Source: an uncultured Gammaproteobacteria bacterium
Lineage (GTDB): Bacteria > Patescibacteriota > Microgenomatia > Woykebacterales > RBG-16-39-9b
Direction: 5' to 3'
NCBI GenBank assembly: GCA_965231125.1
Contig: OZ246414.1
Coordinates: forward strand, 81,739-145,738
DNA: 64,000 nucleotides
Shown: positions 4,084-33,817 of the stretch, piece by piece
Numbering within the stretch: the stretch's first letter is position 1
Layout of the letters: each line of letters starts with the position of its first letter
Notes under the pieces: generated by a model
The model's input: only the letters and a program-made list of their open reading frames with translations
What the model was told of the DNA's origin: nothing
The model's database searches: none
Position numbers and translations under genes: made by a program

Positions 4084-4812
4084 CTAGCGGATTTGGAAGT
4101 TGACGGTTACGGTATAGGTAACTTCTTGCTCACCAGTTAATAAAACTGGAGGAGTAGAAGTTGAGGAGTCGCTACTAGGTACTGACTTTCCCTCTAGGGT
4201 TATAGGCCCACCAAACTGTGGTTCGGAAACTGAAATGACCTTCCCTACCTTAACTCCCAGCTCTTTCGCAGTTTGATCAGCTTTCGATCTTGCGTCAGAC
4301 AAGGCTTTACCACGAACCTCGCTTTCTAACTGTTTGCGGGTTTCATTGGCGAACGTACTTTGAGGGGAAACGCTATAAAGCGGACCTGTAATTGTTAAAT
4401 AATCAAGAATTTTTTGGGCTAAAACTTTATCGTTGATGGTAACTGTCAATGAGAACTGGGCAGTGATCTCATCAGTTTCTCGACCAGTTAACGGTTCGTA
4501 CCTTTTCTGGGTTGTAACATTAGTCTGAATAGATTTATCAGCAACTCCAAGTTTCTTTAACTTTGCCACCACACTATTACCTAGTTTTGAAACCTCGGAA
4601 ATAGCGGTGGTAGAATCTTTAGCCTTTTTCTCATAAACCGGTGAAAAAATAAATTCGTCTGGAGCTGCTTTGAGCGTTGCTTCCCCTTGGATTGAAATAG
4701 TTCGCTTTTCTGTACTTCCCCAAGGTCGCCAAACAAAAGCCATGGAAACAATAACAACTAGCAGTACCGCGCTTAAAATCCTAAAATCGAGTCGAAGGTT
4801 AATTGAACCCAT
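4084..4812 (-). CDS. SIMPL/DUF541 (BP26/YggE-like) periplasmic protein
   Basis: Signal anchor plus a pattern typical of SIMPL-domain proteins (ISIQGEATLKAAPDEFIFSPVYEKKAKDSTTAISE). Confidence 0.55.
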   Translation of the reverse strand: MGSINLRLDFRILSAVLLVVIVSMAFVWRPWGSTEKRTISIQGEATLKAAPDEFIFSPVYEKKAKDSTTAISEVSKLGNSVVAKLKKLGVADKSIQTNVTTQKRYEPLTGRETDEITAQFSLTVTINDKVLAQKILDYLTITGPLYSVSPQSTFANETRKQLESEVRGKALSDARSKADQTAKELGVKVGKVISVSEPQFGGPITLEGKSVPSSDSSTSTPPVLLTGEQEVTYTVTVNFQIR

Positions 4813-9360: not shown

Positions 9361-9450
9361 TGGCGGAGGGGGTGGGATTTGAACCCACGATACCCTTGCG
9401 GGCATGCACGCTTTCCAAGCGTGTGCACTAGGCCACTATGCGACCCCTCC
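9361..9450 (-). tRNA. tRNA-Ser (anticodon GGA), type II with long variable arm
   Basis: The reverse complement gives GGAGGGGTCGCATAGTGG...CTTGGAAAG (anticodon GGA)...GGGTTCAAATCCCACCCCCTCCGCCA. Confidence 0.8.
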
Positions 9451-9568
9451 AAGTTCAGCCATTATACCAGAAAAATAAATTAACTTGACTAGACAAGCAA
9501 GCAGTAGTATTATTTGTTCCACAAGGACAGAGGTTTGTTTGGTCGGGCAAAAAGGAAGGAAGGTGCAC

Positions 9569-10051
9569 ATGAAACTCCGAGGAATCTTGACGATGCTATT
9601 CGCGATGTTCGCTTTCGCGCTCACCATCGTCGCGGCTCTCGCCGGTACGAGTGCTTCGTACGCGGTGCCGGCAACACAAGGCATCAAGACGACAAGCCAC
9701 CGACGCAGCTTGCTGGCAACGCTGCTGTTACCTGTAGCGTTCCTCGCAGGTCTACTGCTGACAATCACCAACATCAACGTGACGACGTCAACCGACACAC
9801 CGACGGACACACCGACCGCAAAACACCGCAGATGGGGCCTGTTCGCTCTGATCACTGGAGCAATCGGCGCTCTCATGCTGCTGTTACGACTGTCGACAAC
9901 CGGCACCGACGATCGAGTTCCGATCGAACGTCTGCAAACGCACCTTGACCAGAGCAGGTCGGGCGCGGGGACGAAGGGCGACGGCGACGTTCATCACAAA
10001 GAGGTCAACTACACGACTCCTGTTCCGGTAGCGGCTCCCGCCGGCACGTGA
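9569..10051 (+). CDS. hypothetical 3-TM membrane protein encoded in a high-GC (about 62%) mini-island
   Basis: ORF from MKLRGILTMLF. Codon usage is GC3-rich, unlike neighbouring genes. Confidence 0.4.
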   Translation: MKLRGILTMLFAMFAFALTIVAALAGTSASYAVPATQGIKTTSHRRSLLATLLLPVAFLAGLLLTITNINVTTSTDTPTDTPTAKHRRWGLFALITGAIGALMLLLRLSTTGTDDRVPIERLQTHLDQSRSGAGTKGDGDVHHKEVNYTTPVPVAAPAGT

Positions 10052-10216
10052 ACATCGACGATCGGTACGTAAGCGCTCCTTTCCTTCCTTTCCGGTCGGA
10101 ACTGAGGCGCTCTAGCTAACTACTTAACCCGCTGGTTATTAAGTAGTTCAGTAACCAAGAACCAGCAAGTTTTCATCAGGACGTCCTGGCCCGACCACCA
10201 ACCTCGTCCTGTCTCA

Positions 10217-10256
10217 GCCCACCTTGTGTTTTCACCAGGTGGGCTTTACTTTTTTA
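10217..10256. terminator. bidirectional terminator hairpin
   Basis: AGCCCACC-14nt-GGTGGGCT flanked by A/T runs, between convergent genes. Confidence 0.5.
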
Positions 10257-10716
10257 ATAACTCTCTTGCTTTTCGGAAAATTTCTTTATCACTTTTGAAG
10301 GAGAGGGTTCCTTCAACCTCATCGCTTGGTATCCACTGCGCGTCTTCCATTTCCCAATCGTGATCCGCTGGATCACCGGACAAATATTCCATCAGAAAAT
10401 ACGTAACTTTTTTCTTAACTAGCTGGCCTTCGAGTTTGTAGAAATATTCTATTGGTGAGAATTCTTGGACTATCTTTGCTTCCACTCCGCCTTCTTCTTT
10501 TACTTCGCGGACGGCAGTTGTTTGTCTGTCTTCGCCCGGATCAATAAGACCTTTGGGAAAAACCCAACCGTGGTGTTGGGAATGCTTTGTAAGGAGAATA
10601 TGAATTTGACTGTCCTCTTTTTTTAGTCCGGCTGGACGCAAGCTCCGCTTTAGTCGAGGACGTAAGCTCCGCTTATAGACAATGCCGCCAGCGCTTTTTT
10701 CAAATTTAAGAGCCAT
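10246..10716 (-). CDS. NUDIX hydrolase
   Basis: Nudix box GPGEDRQTTAVREVKEEGGV. The N-terminus contains a short tandem peptide repeat (SLRPRLKRSLRP). Confidence 0.8.
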   Translation of the reverse strand: MALKFEKSAGGIVYKRSLRPRLKRSLRPAGLKKEDSQIHILLTKHSQHHGWVFPKGLIDPGEDRQTTAVREVKEEGGVEAKIVQEFSPIEYFYKLEGQLVKKKVTYFLMEYLSGDPADHDWEMEDAQWIPSDEVEGTLSFKSDKEIFRKARELLKK

Positions 10717-10783
10717 GTTTTTGCCTTTCAGCTTACTCTCTGGTAAAATTATACGCGTTTTTGAGGTAAAAAAGTAAATTCTT

Positions 10784-10859
10784 GCCCCCGTAGCTCAGTG
10801 GATAGAGCGCAACGTTGCGGACGTTGAGGCCGGAGGTTCGAATCCTCTCGGGGGCACCA
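10784..10859 (+). tRNA. tRNA-Arg (anticodon read as GCG)
   Basis: 76-nt cloverleaf with anticodon stem CAACG/CGTTG and loop TTGCGGA. A GCG anticodon is unusual for bacteria, so the reading should be confirmed. Confidence 0.65.
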
Positions 10860-10860
10860 T

Positions 10861-10950
10861 GGAGGGATGCCGGAGTGGTTTAACGGCCAGGTCTCGAAAA
10901 CCTTGGGTCCCGTAAGGGGCACGGAGGTTCAAATCCTCCTCCCTCCGCCA
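10861..10950 (+). tRNA. tRNA-Ser (anticodon CGA), type II
   Basis: GGAGGGATGCCGGAGTGG..CTCGAAA loop..long variable arm..GGTTCAAATCCTCCTCCCTCCGCCA. Confidence 0.75.
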
Positions 10951-11019
10951 CTAATATTGTCCCAGTAGCTCAGTGGAAAGATCGCTACGCGCTCTGCGAC
11001 CACTTCGTAGTCTAAAAGC

Positions 11020-11095
11020 GCAAAAACATGTCCCTGTGGCTCAATGGATAGAGCACCAGTTTCCGGAACTGGGGATTGAGAGTTCGAATCTCTCC
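11020..11095 (+). tRNA. tRNA-Arg (anticodon CCG)
   Basis: GTCCCTGTGGCTCAATGGATAGAGC..CCAGT TTCCGGA ACTGG..GAGAGTTCGAATCTCTCCAGGGACACCA. Confidence 0.8.
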
Positions 11096-11123
11096 AGGGA
11101 CACCACTACCTTCTTAATATCAT

Positions 11124-11762
11124 TTAGCTGGCCATTTTGTGGAATAATTTTGAAAGGGTTTCGCCCAGACTGTCCATCCAAGAAGTTTTTGGAACTTCGC
11201 GGTAGGGCAAATATCTAAGCAGCGCGGATTTAACTTTTTCTTTTTCTTTGGGGTCAATAATCATTATTAACCTAGCTGGAAAATTTACTAAAGTGTCTAT
11301 GTTAAGGACGGTTGACCCGTGTTTTTCGGTAAACCAAAAATCATAAAGTTCTTCCCAAAGATAGTTGTGAGTGCCCGTGATAATACCTTGATTGGTAATT
11401 TTATGATTAAGGTTATCTGGTGGAACGGAAGCCAAAACGTAAGCTAAAAAGGCTATCGCCAAAACGGGCGCAATTATGAAAAACTCCCTAACAAAAACCA
11501 GAATTAGAATAATTAAAATTGTCAGCAAGACAACGTACATAAGCCATTTTTTCCCTCGCGGAATAAAAACGTGGGCGGGGGAGGCCCACTCATACAAGGT
11601 TTTTACCTCAAACTCGCCCTCTCCCTCCTGACCTTCAAGTTCAGCTATTTTTGAGTGAAGACTATCAAGTTGTTCTTTTAACCCTGCGATTTGGTTTTCT
11701 TTGCCAGCTTGAGGGTTTGGAGAAGGGTTTCTCTTAAAAAACCGTTTTTGAGCAGACGCCAT
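11124..11762 (-). CDS. hypothetical membrane protein with N-terminal coiled coil
   Basis: N-terminal coiled coil (KEQLDSLHSKIAELEGQEGE), then two TM segments. Confidence 0.4.
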   Translation of the reverse strand: MASAQKRFFKRNPSPNPQAGKENQIAGLKEQLDSLHSKIAELEGQEGEGEFEVKTLYEWASPAHVFIPRGKKWLMYVVLLTILIILILVFVREFFIIAPVLAIAFLAYVLASVPPDNLNHKITNQGIITGTHNYLWEELYDFWFTEKHGSTVLNIDTLVNFPARLIMIIDPKEKEKVKSALLRYLPYREVPKTSWMDSLGETLSKLFHKMAS

Positions 11763-11845
11763 ATATTTTTATGATACTACTAAATTTGCGCTTTTCCAAG
11801 AGCCGTTGAATTTAACCAGCCTTTTTGTTAGAATTTGCACACTCT

Positions 11846-11935
11846 GGAGGGGTCGCATAGCTGGTCCATTGCACGGGTTTGCTAAACCCGCGAGCCTTTT
11901 GGCTCACGTGGGTTCGAATCCCACCCCCTCCGCCA
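11846..11935 (+). tRNA. tRNA-Ser (anticodon GCT), type II
   Basis: GGAGGGGTCGCATAGCTGG..CGGGT TTGCTAA ACCCG..GGGTTCGAATCCCACCCCCTCCGCCA. Confidence 0.8.
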
Positions 11936-12025
11936 GGAGAGGTGGCCGAGTGGTTTAAGGCGACGGTCTTGAAAACCGTTTCCCGAGTAATCGGGACGGG
12001 GGTTCGAATCCCTCCCTCTCCGCCA
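11936..12025 (+). tRNA. tRNA-Ser (anticodon TGA), type II
   Basis: GGAGAGGTGGCCGAGTGG..ACGGT CTTGAAA ACCGT..GGGGGTTCGAATCCCTCCCTCTCCGCCA. Directly abuts the previous tRNA. Confidence 0.8.
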
Positions 12026-12746: not shown

Positions 12747-13112
12747 TGGTGGTGGAGATGATGGGTATTGCACCCATGTCCGTGAAAGAATGATAACCAG
12801 ATACTACAAGCTTAGCTAACCTTAATCTCCTTTGGCTCCTACCGGTTAGCAGGATCAGTACCAAAGCAGGTTGTTGATAAGTTCTGAGTAGATTTAGGTT
12901 ACCAACCTAAAAATAATCGTCTTGGCTCCTGTTGCACTCTTAGGGCTTCACCAAGATAAAGCTTAAAAGAGCGCTCGATTACGCGAAAGCGAGTCGAGAT
13001 GAAAATGCCTTGTTGGCATTTACGAATTTGCCTGCAGATTTAACGGCTTCTAACAAGCTTATGCCGGCTTGCATCTAACTCACCAGTCTCACCGTCGAAA
13101 TTAGACATCCCC
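12747..13112 (-). ncRNA. ssrA: tmRNA (ssrA)
   Basis: Minus-strand sequence begins GGGGATGTCTAATTTCGACGG (compare the canonical GGGGcUGAUUCUGGAUUCGACGGG). It ends ...CGGACATGGGTGCAATACCCATCATCTCCACCA(CCA), a tRNA-like 3' end. An internal tag reading frame, ANKAFSSRLAFA followed by a stop, is present. It lies directly adjacent to smpB. Confidence 0.75.
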
Positions 13113-29609: not shown

Positions 29610-32600
29610 CTAAGCGGCTACAATCACAAATCCGCTATTGGGTTCTGGCACTGCGCTCGTAACTAGGTTGTTGTGGCCCATATAGACCATCTTGATGTAC
29701 CTGATGTAACGCTGCTTCTCCTCCTCTCCTATGTTCCTAATCGCTTCCCGTAGAACGTTATTGATTTGGTCCCAGCGATATTTGTCGACGATCATTTCCG
29801 CAAGCTTCATAGAGTATCGGGAGTCAATTTTTGCCCAGCGGGCAATAGTGACAGTCAGGCGATCAACGTCCATCTCCCTCATCGCCTTGCCTCTCTGGAC
29901 TCCATCTTGCTCTTTGAACCTAGAGAGCCACCAACTATTACCCTTTAGGCTCTTGGCGCTTTCCTTAACGAACTCGAGTTCGTCTGTCTCACTCCAGTGA
30001 CCAAGCTCCCGCGCCCTGGCTTTACCGAGACTGTTGTCGAACACTCGGTTCCACCAAACCCATTCCCCATCTCGAACAAATTTGGACTCTGACTCAGCAT
30101 CGTCCCCGATTCGGAAGGGGTAACCCTCGCTGATCCAGGAACCGTAGGTGCCTCCGGAGAAAGCGTGGGCCCGACCCAAAAGGGTGAGCTCCATCTCCCT
30201 CTCTTCCTGGTAAGCGATCGCTGGTCTGCGCAGATCCCAAATCATTCGCTCCATACCGATCCGGCGACCACCAGGAAGCCCGAGATCGAATCTGCCCTTC
30301 GGAATTACGATGGTGGGTAGGCCTTCGGTGTTCCGCCGGACTACGGGGACCACCTGCTGCACCCGGTTAGTCATCGCTTCTTGCAAAGCGTACTGAACCC
30401 TAGCCCGCTTTGGCTCCTCGGGCTGGTGAGCCCACATTGCGTACATGAAGTTACGCGCTGCAGTGGCGTTGTCGTAGTTCACCCGAATGAAGCTATCATA
30501 GCCGTACGTATTTGGGTTGGACAAGCGCACGTTAAGCACCGCCAACGCATTCATCTGACCTAGAATCGCCTCGTTCTGCAGCCAAACGGTGATAGGGTCT
30601 CGGACGGCAAACTCGATGGTACGGGTCCAATCGTCCTCGTCTCGGTAGTTGCGTACCCTGCTGGTGAACTCCTTAACTAGCGTGTCAAAGTCGGGCATCG
30701 CCCCATCACCAGCCGCCGAGTTTAGCCCTCGCTCGCGCTTGAGCTGATCCAAGGCGACTGCCATTGCCTCGGCGTACAAAGTTGCCTGAGCACCGTCGTG
30801 AGGCATCTTCTGCCAGGGTTCCTTGAAGAACCAGGCCCAGTCAAGTAGCGAGCGACGAAGCTCAACCCTTTCCTGGGACACCTCCACGAAACGCTCAAAT
30901 ATCTCGTTTCCGAGAACGTACGCTTCCCTTTCGTCCCGAGTCGGTTCTTTGATCTCCGAGAAGACAGCCTGCCATTCCTCATGAACAAGCTTGTCCGGTA
31001 TCTCTTCTGGACTAGGGATCGGCGCAAAAGCCTCCCCCCGATGCAGTTTGCCCAGAAGGTGGGCCTGGAACCGAGCGCACCGATGCAGAATCATGTACCG
31101 CCGGTCGCAGGTATAATCGATGCTCTCCCACTCACCACCGAAGTTGTTCTGGACATACCGAGCTACGTCCGCATCTTCCATATTCCAACCCTCACGTTTG
31201 GTCCGCATAGAGCGGGCCATCTGCCAGAATTGAATACGGTGCAGACGCTTTCTGCGTCGCTCGATATTTTCCGCCCTGTAGCGGAAGGTGGAGTGATCCA
31301 CCACTGGTTCCCAGCTACCGTAGGAAGGCTGGTAAACTAGCTTCCCTGTCTCCTTATCAACCTTGGATTTACCAGGACGGTATACCCAAGTCACGGTGGA
31401 TGGTTGCTCCACGTACACCGCGAGCTGCACGAGCTCCTTGAGAGCCTGTGCCTGGCTGACTGGATCCGAGGTTTGCGCCCCAAAAATATCCGCCAGAAGC
31501 CAAGGCTCGTTCATCTGCTCGCTTGGATACGAACGGTCCATGTTTTGGTCCACGAAGCTATCCTGATCGCGGAGCCAACGTGCCCACCATTTCTTTAGGG
31601 CTTTGCGACCCTTTGTCTTTTCGAGCTCTATCATCTCTTCTTCGGTGGGTATGCGGAATCCGCTAACTACCTCACCAGTTTTAGGATCGCGTTTCTGCTT
31701 CCGACGGACCGTTTCTTCGAAGTATTTCCACGTCGCCCCGTAACCGAAGTACTCGGTTCCATCCTCATCCGTATAGTAGAGGATTTTCTCCGAACACACT
31801 TTGTGAGCGAGCATGGTGCGGCCTTTTATGTTCAGGTCGCCCACGTCGATTTCGTACTTCTCAGTGTGCGGATTGTAGTGCAGGCCTTCGGGAAATTCCT
31901 GAAAGACCCCTTCACGAACGTTTGCACCATTGCGGTAATACTCCGCTTCCACGCGGCTGCGGAGTGCCTCTTTTTCAGCTTCAGACAGCTCTTCGAGCTC
32001 CCCGGTTTCGGGGTTCTCCACGAAGTAATACCACTGATCTGGTTCCTTCGGGCGAAGCTTCAGCCGAAGCGCGCGGCGGTAGACGTTGTCTTTCTCCCGC
32101 CATTCATCCATTGGTGCGTTGGGTTTGTGCGGTGGAGGGACTTTATTCAACCCTTCGTTGTTCACTGGAAGGTCTCCAGCTCCAACAGCAGGGTAGAACA
32201 CTCGATAGCGAGTAAAGTCCTCTCTCTTCGCGATATCCTCCGCGTGCAACTTGCGCATAACTTCCAGCCGGGAAGAGCCAGGGTTCTTTTTGAGAGCCCG
32301 ACGCATCCGGTGGTAGCTACGCGACACACGCCGAATTTCCCGGTGGTACATCCAGTTAGGATAGCGTCCACCGGGACCAATGTCTTGACGAACTCTAGCG
32401 TGGTTCAGCTCGGGCGAAAGAACGAACATGTTCGTGTCGATACGAACCTGCCCAAGAGAAACCTCAGAGTTCTCTATTTCTTGTTGAAGTTTCTGTACTT
32501 CTTCCCACATGTGCTTTTGTTTTACGGTGTCCGAGATTCCAAACGAGAGAGTGCTGATGAGAAACGGGTTTTTTCCCTTACGCTCAATAGCGTAGCATAG

Positions 32601-32945
32601 AATCGGTTCCCGCTCTCCCATTGGGAATTCGGGCTTTCCGTCTCTGCCAACCCGCCATACCCCGTCCCTTGGTACAACGACTCGCTCCTTAGGCTTGGCT
32701 GTAACCACTTCCATGAAGAAGCGGCGGCCACCCCTCTGCCCGTTGATCTGGAAACCTTGTTCCGAATACTGCGTCTCAGCCAGAGCTTTGAGCTCCTGCT
32801 CTAGCGATGGGAGACCAGCGTATGCCCCCGATCCATATTCGGCTGGGGTTATTACCAGATCCGGTATTCTACCGAACCTAGTTCCGGGAAGAGCTTCCTC
32901 GAACTCTTCGCCATAACCGTCACCGTCCCCATTACCATTTGTCAT
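29610..32945 (-). CDS. giant orphan protein (about 1113 aa), soluble, Arg/Glu/Trp-rich, in a compositionally distinct (about 55-60% GC) segment
   Basis: Continuous ORF. The start is assigned to MTNGNGDGDG, preceded by an AGGAGG SD; the ORF track's upstream extension lacks an SD. No TM, no Walker A and no recognisable catalytic motif. Confidence 0.6.
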   Translation of the reverse strand: MTNGNGDGDGYGEEFEEALPGTRFGRIPDLVITPAEYGSGAYAGLPSLEQELKALAETQYSEQGFQINGQRGGRRFFMEVVTAKPKERVVVPRDGVWRVGRDGKPEFPMGEREPILCYAIERKGKNPFLISTLSFGISDTVKQKHMWEEVQKLQQEIENSEVSLGQVRIDTNMFVLSPELNHARVRQDIGPGGRYPNWMYHREIRRVSRSYHRMRRALKKNPGSSRLEVMRKLHAEDIAKREDFTRYRVFYPAVGAGDLPVNNEGLNKVPPPHKPNAPMDEWREKDNVYRRALRLKLRPKEPDQWYYFVENPETGELEELSEAEKEALRSRVEAEYYRNGANVREGVFQEFPEGLHYNPHTEKYEIDVGDLNIKGRTMLAHKVCSEKILYYTDEDGTEYFGYGATWKYFEETVRRKQKRDPKTGEVVSGFRIPTEEEMIELEKTKGRKALKKWWARWLRDQDSFVDQNMDRSYPSEQMNEPWLLADIFGAQTSDPVSQAQALKELVQLAVYVEQPSTVTWVYRPGKSKVDKETGKLVYQPSYGSWEPVVDHSTFRYRAENIERRRKRLHRIQFWQMARSMRTKREGWNMEDADVARYVQNNFGGEWESIDYTCDRRYMILHRCARFQAHLLGKLHRGEAFAPIPSPEEIPDKLVHEEWQAVFSEIKEPTRDEREAYVLGNEIFERFVEVSQERVELRRSLLDWAWFFKEPWQKMPHDGAQATLYAEAMAVALDQLKRERGLNSAAGDGAMPDFDTLVKEFTSRVRNYRDEDDWTRTIEFAVRDPITVWLQNEAILGQMNALAVLNVRLSNPNTYGYDSFIRVNYDNATAARNFMYAMWAHQPEEPKRARVQYALQEAMTNRVQQVVPVVRRNTEGLPTIVIPKGRFDLGLPGGRRIGMERMIWDLRRPAIAYQEEREMELTLLGRAHAFSGGTYGSWISEGYPFRIGDDAESESKFVRDGEWVWWNRVFDNSLGKARARELGHWSETDELEFVKESAKSLKGNSWWLSRFKEQDGVQRGKAMREMDVDRLTVTIARWAKIDSRYSMKLAEMIVDKYRWDQINNVLREAIRNIGEEEKQRYIRYIKMVYMGHNNLVTSAVPEPNSGFVIVAA

Positions 32946-33817
32946 TTGTGTTTCCTCCTCGCTGTTGAACCACCTCGACTTAGTCGAGGGTGCTGACCGG
33001 CAAACTTTCTTTGTGAGAACTGTTTCCCACTTTGGTGTTTGCTGGATCAGCAGCAACACCAAGGGGCGGCCGAAGGCCAGTTTTAAATTATAAGACGCGG
33101 GACATATGTCCAAAACACTAGAATCTTACATCCTAAATCTGACATCCATCCGTCCCTCGGTGTTACCTATACTAAGGAGGGGTCCTGGTTTTCACCGGGA
33201 CTTCGACTTGTCTAACGACAAGTCTTGTTTTTTGCTTGTTACCTCAATTTTTCGGCGTACTACAGGTTTAATCCTGTAGTTCTTTTGATCTTTATTCGTT
33301 TTTTAAGGTGCACATTAGCTTTTCGAAAATAGATCGCTCCGTAACCAAATCCAAGTGATTTGGGTACTCTCGCGTTCTGTGCTTTAAAAAAGCTAAGGGC
33401 TCTGGGTGACAAATTTCTTATCAACCAGAGCCCACCTTCGGGGTCCTATGAAGGGACACCTCAACTCGGAGGTGGCTCTGGATTATTTAGTTTAATTTTA
33501 AGTTCGCCCTTACTCATTTTTTCTAGCCTCTACTGACTGGCCGAATTTTAGCATAACTTAGCTTAAATGTCAACTATAAGTCATTTTGTAACTTCGAAAC
33601 CTGCGAGCTCTTGGTTTCTCAGGTACTCTCACGTCTCGCGCTAGGCGTCTTAACGCCTAGCTAAGAGCGCATCGGTTTTTATTCGCGCAGTACGATACAG
33701 TTTGACTCGGTTGCTTTTAGCCTCCCCATGAGCCATAATAATCCCTACAATAGTCGTAAAAAGCTATTTTTCGGCGAAGGATCAGCGAAGCGAGCCGAAG
33801 TATTGTAACCAAAAGTT

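Follow-up and report, generated by a model that had tools for sequence, protein, structure and literature searches.

Why should two divergent transcription units be separated by 872 nt in which no long gene is apparent? The question is raised by positions 32946-33817 of the 64-kb stretch of DNA analysed here (the window), a gap that lies between a giant open reading frame (ORF) and a PrgI-family gene:

29610-32945, minus strand: giant ORF of 1111 aa, with its ATG at 32945 and GAGGAGG before the ATG.
33818 onwards, plus strand: PrgI-family gene (Pfam PF12666, E 5.8e-12).

We consider it likely that the minus strand of this gap carries a ribosome-dependent transcription attenuator of the leader-peptide type that acts on the giant ORF, and that the gap as a whole is a control region shared by both transcription units. 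The initial annotation, made from the letters alone, had left a choice between small non-coding RNAs, an attenuator and an operator. The attenuator proved to be the best supported of these, in a minus-strand, leader-peptide form; the plus-strand RNA and the operator were not supported. All features listed in that annotation were found within 0-2 nt of where they had been placed.

Homologous gaps were supplied by PrgI relatives at 60-73% identity from a large protein collection, with locus L028 added separately. In these related Woykebacteria-like genomes (Microgenomates; candidate phyla radiation, CPR) a gap of approximately 720-830 nt has the same flanking genes, the layout being a large minus-strand ORF, the gap, PrgI, a TraC-like gene, VirB4 and recF. 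Since both size and neighbours are kept, the length of the "empty" gap is itself conserved. Six loci (the window, L059, L061, L062, L063 and L028) were aligned, and a wider set of homologues (L065, L031, L067, L030, L070/L071 and L002/L003; L060 equals L059) was used for further comparisons. The six-way alignment is made up of discrete conserved blocks with variable or lineage-specific inserts between them. The relatives from the genome collection all had PrgI identities of 50% or less, and in them DNA similarity to the gap was detectable at one short block only.

The functional strand, as judged by sequence comparison, is the minus strand. Both strands of the 872 nt folded better than 20 dinucleotide shuffles, with minimum free energies (MFE) of -282 kcal/mol for the plus strand (z -6.7) and -307 kcal/mol for the minus strand (z -12.7), which bears out the earlier description of the gap as hairpin-dense. 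The minus strand folded better than the plus strand by 11-32 kcal/mol in all six genomes. It is also the strand of the first of the two predicted promoters:

33545..33573, minus strand: promoter D, TTGACA-17-TGnTAAAAT, of the sigma-70 type with an extended -10 TG (scan score 11/12); predicted transcription start ~33538.

Promoter D stands at the homologous place in 11 of 11 loci (the window, L059, L061, L062, L063, L028, L065, L031, L067, L030 and L071) and was also called by the scan in L062, L061, L028 and L067. It is the predicted driver of the leader and the giant ORF. The putative attenuator would occupy the first 150 nt of this leader, in which the following features were recognized:

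33517..33461, minus strand: upstream ORF (uORF) encoding MSKGELKIKLNNPEPPPS, with ATG at 33517-33515 and a UGA stop at 33463-33461.
33471..33481, minus strand: segment 1, CCAGAGCCACC, encoding P-E-P-P of the uORF; 5' arm of the putative antiterminator.
33425..33436, minus strand: segment 2, GGUGGGCUCUGG, common to the antiterminator (with segment 1) and the terminator (with segment 3).
33397..33405, minus strand: segment 3, CCAGAGCCC, a copy of segment 1; 3' arm of the terminator.
33385..33433, minus strand: predicted intrinsic terminator, a hairpin at 33433..33397 followed by UUAGCUUUUUUA (33396..33385).

The hairpin of segments 2 and 3 has 15 bp, a 5-nt loop and a folding energy of -23.4 kcal/mol, and the U-tract UUAGCUUUUUU comes next. 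Homologous hairpins have 15-17 bp, about -22 to -28 kcal/mol and a U-rich tail, and in L061 and L028 the scan calls them terminators. A covariation analysis of the homologous gaps, which the initial annotation had proposed, was run as pair counting with slid controls; an alignment made by covariance model mixed in reverse-strand partial matches and was excluded from the counting. In six close sequences 90 of 90 pair cells held standard pairs, and three pairs had compensatory double changes. Pairing fell to 31-52% when the 3' partner columns were slid by 1-3. The terminator stem covaries, and its G-U pairs on the minus strand are A-C mismatches on the plus strand. The stems CCAGAGCC/GGCTCTGG, earlier placed at 33425..33482, are present at 33420-33486; they had been read on the plus strand, and on the minus strand they would be the antiterminator and terminator segments. 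A predicted intrinsic terminator thus lies between the leader ORF and the giant gene, as in an attenuator.

The competing duplex of segments 1 and 2 has a predicted energy of -20.3 kcal/mol. When the nascent transcript was cut after segment 2, this duplex was the closing helix in 10 of 10 homologues (whole fold -21 to -37 kcal/mol), and when a ribosome footprint was masked on the last sense codon the terminator stayed in 10 of 10; the terminator hairpins of these ten have predicted energies of -22 to -25 kcal/mol. These folds suggest a helix that would exclude the terminator and that overlaps the leader ORF, a further attenuator feature. A covariance model of the element (R1) had one full-length match in the window, on the minus strand (134.7 bits); the only other match (33397-33440, plus strand, 24.4 bits) was the terminator hairpin in reverse complement. 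R1 also found diverged copies in L031, L067, L030 and L071. In the distant clade (L031, L067 and L030), CAAAGCCC / GGGCUUUG / CAAAGCCC replace CCAGAGCC / GGCUCUGG / CCAGAGCC, and the G-C to A-U change is present in all three segments. The segment register differs again in L071, and all three segments are still complementary. The interval between segments 1 and 2 (35-45 nt) is variable in length and has almost no invariant positions.

The gap had been described as ORF-free. This is true of long ORFs and fails for the conserved 18-codon uORF. Its ATG, 13-40 nt past the -10 hexamer of promoter D, is invariant across homologues, and in the window AGAGG is found 9 nt upstream of it. A short conserved ORF just past the promoter is what an attenuator of this type would have. 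The predicted peptides of the other homologues, each followed by a stop, are:

L061: MIVKKLRIKKILPEPPPEW
L062: MNEAELRIKKLIIPEPPPW
L063: MIGLVRIENLIPEPPPE
L028: MTEDKLLIKLIYPEPPPK
L065: MSEIRLKIIKIKPEPQRKR
L031: MNMFKIMLDNFAQSPPG
L067: MKNMIIDLNIAAQSPPG
L030: MSTEDNISLVFAQSPPG
L071 (= L070): MKFSFKLIIEKSPEQISP
L003: MFSKRILKLKGRGSTPT

The uORF has 17-19 codons in 10 of 11 homologues, and two of its three indels in the close clade are 3 nt long and keep the frame. In the 10 in-frame homologues the stop is found 1-12 nt past segment 1 and 20-36 nt before segment 2. With this spacing a terminating or paused ribosome would cover segment 1 but not segment 2. The peptides end in PEPPP(S/EW/W/E/K) in five homologues and in SPPG in three, and the endings PEPQRKR, SPEQISP and GSTPT, without PP, occur once each. 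PPP or PPG is found within the last 1-5 codons of 8 of the 11 uORFs, and a proline directly precedes the stop in one more. The proline codons vary synonymously at third positions, and CCAGAGCC is invariant even at synonymous sites; together these patterns point to a coding constraint and an RNA constraint acting at once.

We propose that the position of the ribosome decides between the two helices. If no ribosome is on segment 1 as segment 2 emerges, because translation is absent, late or held earlier, segments 1 and 2 would pair and transcription would read through. A ribosome that has reached the last uORF codons would mask segment 1, so that segments 2 and 3 form the terminator and transcription stops before the giant gene. 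Since the terminator is the equilibrium fold even without a ribosome, antitermination would have to be kinetic. PPP and PPG are strong pause motifs, past which the ribosome needs EF-P to move on, and a C-terminal proline slows release (PMC5021804, PMC8129111); uORF ends of this kind would therefore prolong the stay of the ribosome. Such a pause, possibly aided by a C-terminal proline before the stop, may hold the ribosome on segment 1 while segments 2 and 3 are synthesized. That it serves as a functional timer is a tentative idea, which we rate somewhat below even. The output would then be set by uORF initiation, by the coupling of transcription and translation, or by the supply of EF-P or prolyl-tRNA.

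Several observations weigh against this reading. The start of transcription, its termination and the translation of the uORF are predictions, and the covariation was drawn from 6-11 related sequences. L062 and L063 have a poor U-tract. Even in the absence of a ribosome, the MFE structure at equilibrium is that of the terminator. PP is absent from 3 of the 11 uORFs; moreover, segment 1 must be C-rich to pair with the G-rich terminator arm, so chance would account for some of the proline codons (about one frame in three). In the upstream codons of the uORF, differences by codon position were 74/83/97, a weak third-position excess, and 30 synonymous were counted against 111 non-synonymous codon differences. 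Poor conservation of upstream codons is usual for leader peptides, and it lends the coding status weak support. Several uORFs have no recognizable Shine-Dalgarno (SD) sequence. In L059/L060 a 1-nt deletion in an A-run (L059 ~4700-4745) shifts the frame, placing the stop 22 nt past segment 1 and 11 nt before segment 2 in L059; the deletion may be a fault of the assembly, or else a natural variant that would be expected to alter the switch. Finally, an enrichment of PP motifs was not found in the giant proteins.

To which gene does the element belong? R1 copies adjoin the giant ORF in L067, L031, L030 and L070/L071, where 1-2 kb of other genes come before PrgI. As the element stays with the large minus-strand ORF despite the inserted genes, it belongs to the giant gene and not to PrgI. 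The genes that part the attenuator promoter from PrgI include one for a ParE-like toxin, with a small partner, in L067 (2188-2724) and a bAvd-type gene in L070 and L071 (2536-2913 and 527-904, respectively). bAvd is an accessory protein of diversity-generating retroelements.

Of the alternatives, the one that survives best is a stand-alone gene of ~150 nt, either a small-protein mRNA or a dual-function small RNA (sRNA), that always ends at 33385-33396; the giant ORF would have a promoter of its own, and the similarity of segments 1 and 3 would have a stabilizing role only. It would fit a terminator that is thermodynamically favoured in all homologues and the conserved UUAACAA/GCGAAUAUAAGG block just past it, and terminated attenuator RNAs and leader peptides are able to act in trans in other bacteria (peTrpL, PMC7298713). 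However, in the window, L062, L028 and L067 the stretch from the terminator to the giant ORF showed no minus-strand promoter, and the other minus-strand sites in L061 are weak (9/12) and all upstream of the terminator. The concerted three-way change keeps the pairing of segments 1 and 2, which a simple terminator does not need, and the peptide is poorly conserved except at its end. We regard this explanation as improbable.

It is quite improbable, in our judgement, that the switch is real but set by a ligand, a protein or a trans-acting RNA, with the reading frame a by-product. The weakly constrained codons before segment 1, and the uORFs without an SD or a PP motif, would be accounted for in this way. 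Against it, the interval between segments 1 and 2 contains no conserved binding core, Rfam gave no match, and the invariant ATG, the in-frame indels and the fixed place of the stop relative to segment 1 are shared by two clades that are otherwise unalignable. Nor does the element join a riboswitch or other Rfam family: no match in this region of the window reached the gathering score, and the interior of the switch is variable.

Past the terminator the leader of the giant gene, ~590 nt in all under the attenuator reading, continues for ~440 nt with mutually exclusive predicted helices and then reaches the SD:

33324..33374, minus strand: optional module directly after the terminator, GCGAGAGUACC, a hairpin and GUUACGGAGCGAUCUAUUUUCG.
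33205..33287: hairpins 33205-33224 and 33259-33280, with the conserved tract TTTTTTGYTTGTT (plus strand) and the motif ATTTTTCGGCG.
33154..33167, minus strand: segment X, GGUAACACCGAGGG, 5' arm of a long hairpin; resembles the SD region.
33100..33111, minus strand: palindrome GGACATATGTCC, apical tip of the X:Y hairpin.
33054..33066, minus strand: segment Y, CCCCUUGGUGUUG, the most conserved part of the distal leader; can pair with X, Z or the SD region.
33026..33039, minus strand: segment Z, AACACCAAAGUGGG, alternative 3' partner of Y.
32989..32973, minus strand: hairpin CCUCGACUAAGUCGAGG, followed by the SD region CAACAGCGAGGAGG (32967..32954) and the ATG of the giant ORF (32945..32943).

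X:Y duplexes of -20 to -30 kcal/mol are predicted in nine genomes. Where Y has changed, namely UU to AA in L059, G to A in L028 and GGUG to GAUG in L002/L003, X carries a compensating change, and the Y:Z duplexes (-15 to -23 kcal/mol) covary with Y in L059, L028, L002 and L003. Because X and Z have each followed the changes in Y, both helices are supported, as mutually exclusive structures. A pairing of Y with the SD, proposed by RNAalifold, was downgraded, since the changes in Y are uncompensated in the SD of L059, L028 and L003 and only L002 compensates; sequestration of the SD by Y is possible. The CCUCGACUAAGUCGAGG hairpin shows compensatory changes. The X:Y and Y:Z helices, and possibly the Y:SD helix, may further gate translation of the giant gene.

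The X:Y hairpin (127 nt) folds to -57.9 kcal/mol on the minus strand (z -6.0) vs. -38.9 kcal/mol on the plus strand (z -3.1). Its base is conserved and covarying, and its apex is replaced or deleted in five of five relatives. The palindrome GGACATATGTCC, confirmed at 33100-33111, had been likened to the operator of a dimeric repressor. As the apex of an RNA hairpin, ~430 nt downstream of promoter D, it shares the fate of that apex in the relatives, and perfect 12-bp palindromes are no rarer than chance (20 in the 64-kb window vs. ~15.6 expected), so the operator was given up. In related genomes the terminator stem and the base of X:Y are both kept and covary.

The optional module (~80 nt; GCGRGAGUACC, a hairpin and GUUACGGAGCGAUCUAU) is present in three genomes only: the window, L063 and L030. 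The window and L063 have the same 22-mer core (100% identity); the L030 module is diverged, with a shorter GUUACGGAGCGAUCUAU copy. In relatives without the module, GAGUACC is joined directly to UUAACAA. The module contains the first of the GGTACTCTCGCG copies listed in the initial annotation, and a related GGTACTCTCACG copy is found at 33622. The direct repeat GGTACTCTC(G/A)CG was confirmed at 33363 and 33622; the 12-mer repeat reached two copies in 5 of 100 shuffles, which is borderline. Following the terminator or the module is a conserved hairpin block, UUAACAA...GGCGAAU, and then an A/C-rich tract. A second minus-strand promoter, UUAACA/UAUAAG, was considered and rejected, as the spacing of the hexamers is wrong or inconsistent and the scan finds none.

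Two hairpins with T-runs on the plus strand, at 33205-33224/33234 and 33259-33280/33287, were found as annotated. Both lie inside the minus-strand leader, where the tract TTTTTTGYTTGTT is A/C-rich as RNA. A hairpin with a T-run occurs at the equivalent place in L061, L028 and L067, hence in both clades, and the evidence from G-U pairs on the strand of these hairpins is mixed. Their role may be to shield the promoter pair against antisense transcription, or they may be no more than minus-strand leader hairpins with an A-rich tract before them. That they end one or more plus-strand sRNAs, as first suggested, and/or act as insulators, with GGACATATGTCC as an operator, is very improbable: both hairpins fit the terminator pattern on the plus strand, the hairpin and T-run recur in L061, L028 and L067 and few blocks are as well conserved as the T-rich tract, but no plus-strand promoter was found upstream of them in the window, L062, L061 or L028, the region belongs to a leader whose better fold is that of the minus strand, the palindrome is neither conserved nor rarer than chance, and the first hairpin of L028 needs a U-G pair that is possible on the minus strand only.

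In some relatives a second terminator-like hairpin with a U-rich tail was seen on the minus strand (L061 4479-4503, L028 620-644 and L067 468-485), with no clear counterpart in the window. The second leader hairpin of the relatives is Y':X in clade 1 and CCCCC/GGGGG in clade 2. There are hints here of a second attenuation point in the leaders of some relatives.

The other side of the gap, between promoter D and PrgI, has the following features:

33640..33661: hairpin GCTAGGCGT/ACGCCTAGC, between the two promoters; a lineage-specific insertion.
33691-33710, plus strand: conserved block TACGATACAGTTTGACTCGG, also written TACGATACAGTATGACTCGG, directly before the -35 of promoter E.
33711-33716 and 33734-33739, plus strand: promoter E, TTGCTT, 17 nt and CATAAT; predicted start ~33746.
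33746..33817, plus strand: 5' untranslated region (UTR) of PrgI, with the conserved sequence AAAGCTTTTTTTCGGCGAA..TCGAA.C.A.CTGAAG.

The hexamers of promoter E are conserved and its spacer is variable in the six-way alignment, and in L062, L061 and L028 the scan found a counterpart, TTGATT-17-CATAAT, at the corresponding position. Promoter E is predicted to serve the PrgI/TraC-like/VirB4 operon. In the window, L062, L061 and L028, scans of the gap and of the initial ~100-450 nt of the giant ORF showed no other plus-strand promoter. The block directly before promoter E, TACGATACAGT(A/T)TGACTCGG, is nearly invariant and in relatives has the dyad symmetry ATACnGTAT; it is the best candidate in the gap for a site bound by a regulatory protein. 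The hairpin GCTAGGCGT/ACGCCTAGC, previously given as a stem at 33638..33659, is present with a shift of position to 33640-33661. It is absent from L059, L061, L063 and L028, and L062 carries a different insert; in the six-way alignment the GCTAGGCG hairpin is an insertion specific to the window.

The 5' UTR of PrgI had no conserved fold (RNAalifold consensus -0.7 kcal/mol) and no covariation. PrgI has no recognizable SD; the divergent giant ORF has a perfect GGAGG. A direct repeat, (A)TTTTTCGGCG(A/T)A, was observed on the plus strand at 33247-33258, in the leader, and at 33766-33777, in the PrgI 5' UTR. Both copies of TTTTTCGGCG(A/T)A (33248 and 33767) are kept in most relatives, the UTR copy being missing in L063. 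The pair could be a two-site protein operator, or could provide 11-15 nt of trans complementarity between the divergent transcripts.

ORFs of 54-58 aa in the gap differ in frame among relatives. A coding role for them and for the conserved block GCACCUUAACAAGCGAAUAUAAGG was rejected for this reason, and the 55-aa gene called in L061 is probably spurious. The initial annotation had recognized no rnpB, signal recognition particle RNA or riboswitch, and a scan of the whole window with Rfam at gathering thresholds agreed, giving no match in the gap and only tRNAs and transfer-messenger RNA (tmRNA) elsewhere. At E<=10 nothing credible was found in the gap region: matches to MIR868 and Enterococcus-1 were spurious, the best E-value being 0.32, to a plant microRNA model. 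The number of terminator-like sites in the gap according to a simple scan (3 vs. 2.3 +/- 1.5 expected) is unexceptional.

What does the element control? The 1111-aa protein had no match in Pfam, NCBIfam or PDB, either as a single sequence or as a seven-member profile, and large protein searches returned only the protein itself and one 46% relative. The syntenic giant proteins of the other loci are linked only transitively by BLASTP, at 21-46% pairwise identity. All members have an acidic N-terminus, ~15% K+R, ~15% D+E and ~3% Trp, and all are found beside type IV secretion system (T4SS) genes. By sequence the giant proteins form a fast-diverging, highly charged, Trp-rich orphan family. As they are not PP-rich, a feed-forward rationale through EF-P was unsupported and was set aside.

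The plus-strand operon comprises PrgI/VirB3 (PF12666), a 498-aa protein, a TraC/TrsD-like protein and a VirB4-type ATPase, and recF and dnaN are located beyond it on the minus strand, which places the locus probably near the replication origin. T4SS genes are origin-proximal in many Patescibacteria lineages, and homologues of PrgI and VirB6 were reported as essential for the epibiotic growth of a Saccharibacteria strain (PMC12102498); the words "intergenic" and "promoter" occur nowhere in the text of that paper. Some 20 kb from the gap are a tmRNA gene (12750-13112, minus strand, 92 bits) and six clustered tRNA genes (9364-12022).

The element, read as an attenuator, resembles in its use of proline codons the leaders of Salmonella mgtP (mgtCBR) and mgtL (mgtA), in which leader ORFs with proline codons control transcription elongation and are sensitive to prolyl-tRNA and EF-P; a polyproline pause before the pyrL attenuator likewise increases termination in efp mutants (PMC5021804). 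The likeness to mgtP and mgtL consists of a short ORF with consecutive proline codons in a long 5' leader, and of ribosome progress that would select between stem-loops and thereby settle if transcription enters the gene. In contrast, stalling in Salmonella favours read-through, and mgtA uses Rho, whereas here a stall is predicted to favour an intrinsic terminator. The sequences are unrelated; the present host belongs to the CPR, and its target gene encodes an orphan of 1111 aa. The Rfam scan gave no match to any curated leader family, and the resemblance is functional only.

With the classical attenuators (trpL, hisL, pheL, leuL, thrL and ilvL) the locus shares a leader peptide, mutually exclusive hairpins, a U-tract and a ribosome at the stop that would mask an antiterminator arm. 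It differs in having three segments and not four, so that nothing pairs with the antiterminator 5' arm, in lacking an upstream run of codons for a single amino acid and in regulating a gene that is not biosynthetic. An untranslated leader is predicted to read through here, whereas in the classical systems it leads to super-attenuation. As in Escherichia coli pyrBI (pyrL), the outcome would depend on how close the ribosome is to RNA polymerase; however, the pyrL ribosome blocks the terminator hairpin and here it would block the antiterminator.

In the Enterococcus plasmid pCF10, an antisense RNA, Anti-Q, and PrgX control the prgQ leader with its IRS1 terminator, and the product of the small ORF is a hydrophobic peptide that is secreted. 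The present locus resembles it in its monoderm-type conjugation/T4SS gene set with a PrgI-family gene, its divergent promoters, a small ORF that opens a long leader and a gating terminator. It departs from pCF10 in three ways: the scans showed no antisense promoter, its peptide is hydrophilic, and the gene that would be gated is the divergent orphan and not the T4SS operon. In the leaders of ermC and of ABCF genes of the vmlR/msr type, drug-dependent arrest exposes an SD or forms an antiterminator. Ribosome arrest on a short ORF would remodel downstream hairpins here as well, but there is no sign of a drug; the motif that causes arrest would be an intrinsic one.

CPR/Patescibacteria have not been cultured, or can be cultured only with difficulty, and to our knowledge almost nothing has been published on their gene regulation. 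No report of a leader peptide or attenuator in Patescibacteria was found in full-text searches, so that the element, which appears to work like known leader-peptide attenuators, is apparently undescribed in this group. We can go further only in speculation: the element may represent an undescribed attenuator family confined to Microgenomates, in which an intrinsic pause, at PPP, PPG or a proline before the stop, falls exactly on the antiterminator arm and gates a giant protein, with X, Y, Z and the SD as a second switch and possible cross-talk with PrgI mRNA through TTTTTCGGCGAA. Taken whole, this is possible, if doubtful.

Even if the mechanism is ordinary, the "empty" 870 nt now carry an annotated promoter pair, uORF, terminator and long leader, and R1 can be used to find more copies of the element. 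The locus offers a concrete, testable cis-regulatory device, kept beside T4SS genes across two clades whose sequences cannot be aligned. Tight control of the orphan 1111-aa family would suggest a protein that is probably costly or needed only conditionally. If the proline pause is functional, this would be a natural case of polyproline-timed termination outside Salmonella and of opposite polarity; and if the intrinsic-pause family is real, then ribosome availability, EF-P activity or the coupling of transcription and translation would decide whether these bacteria synthesize the giant protein.

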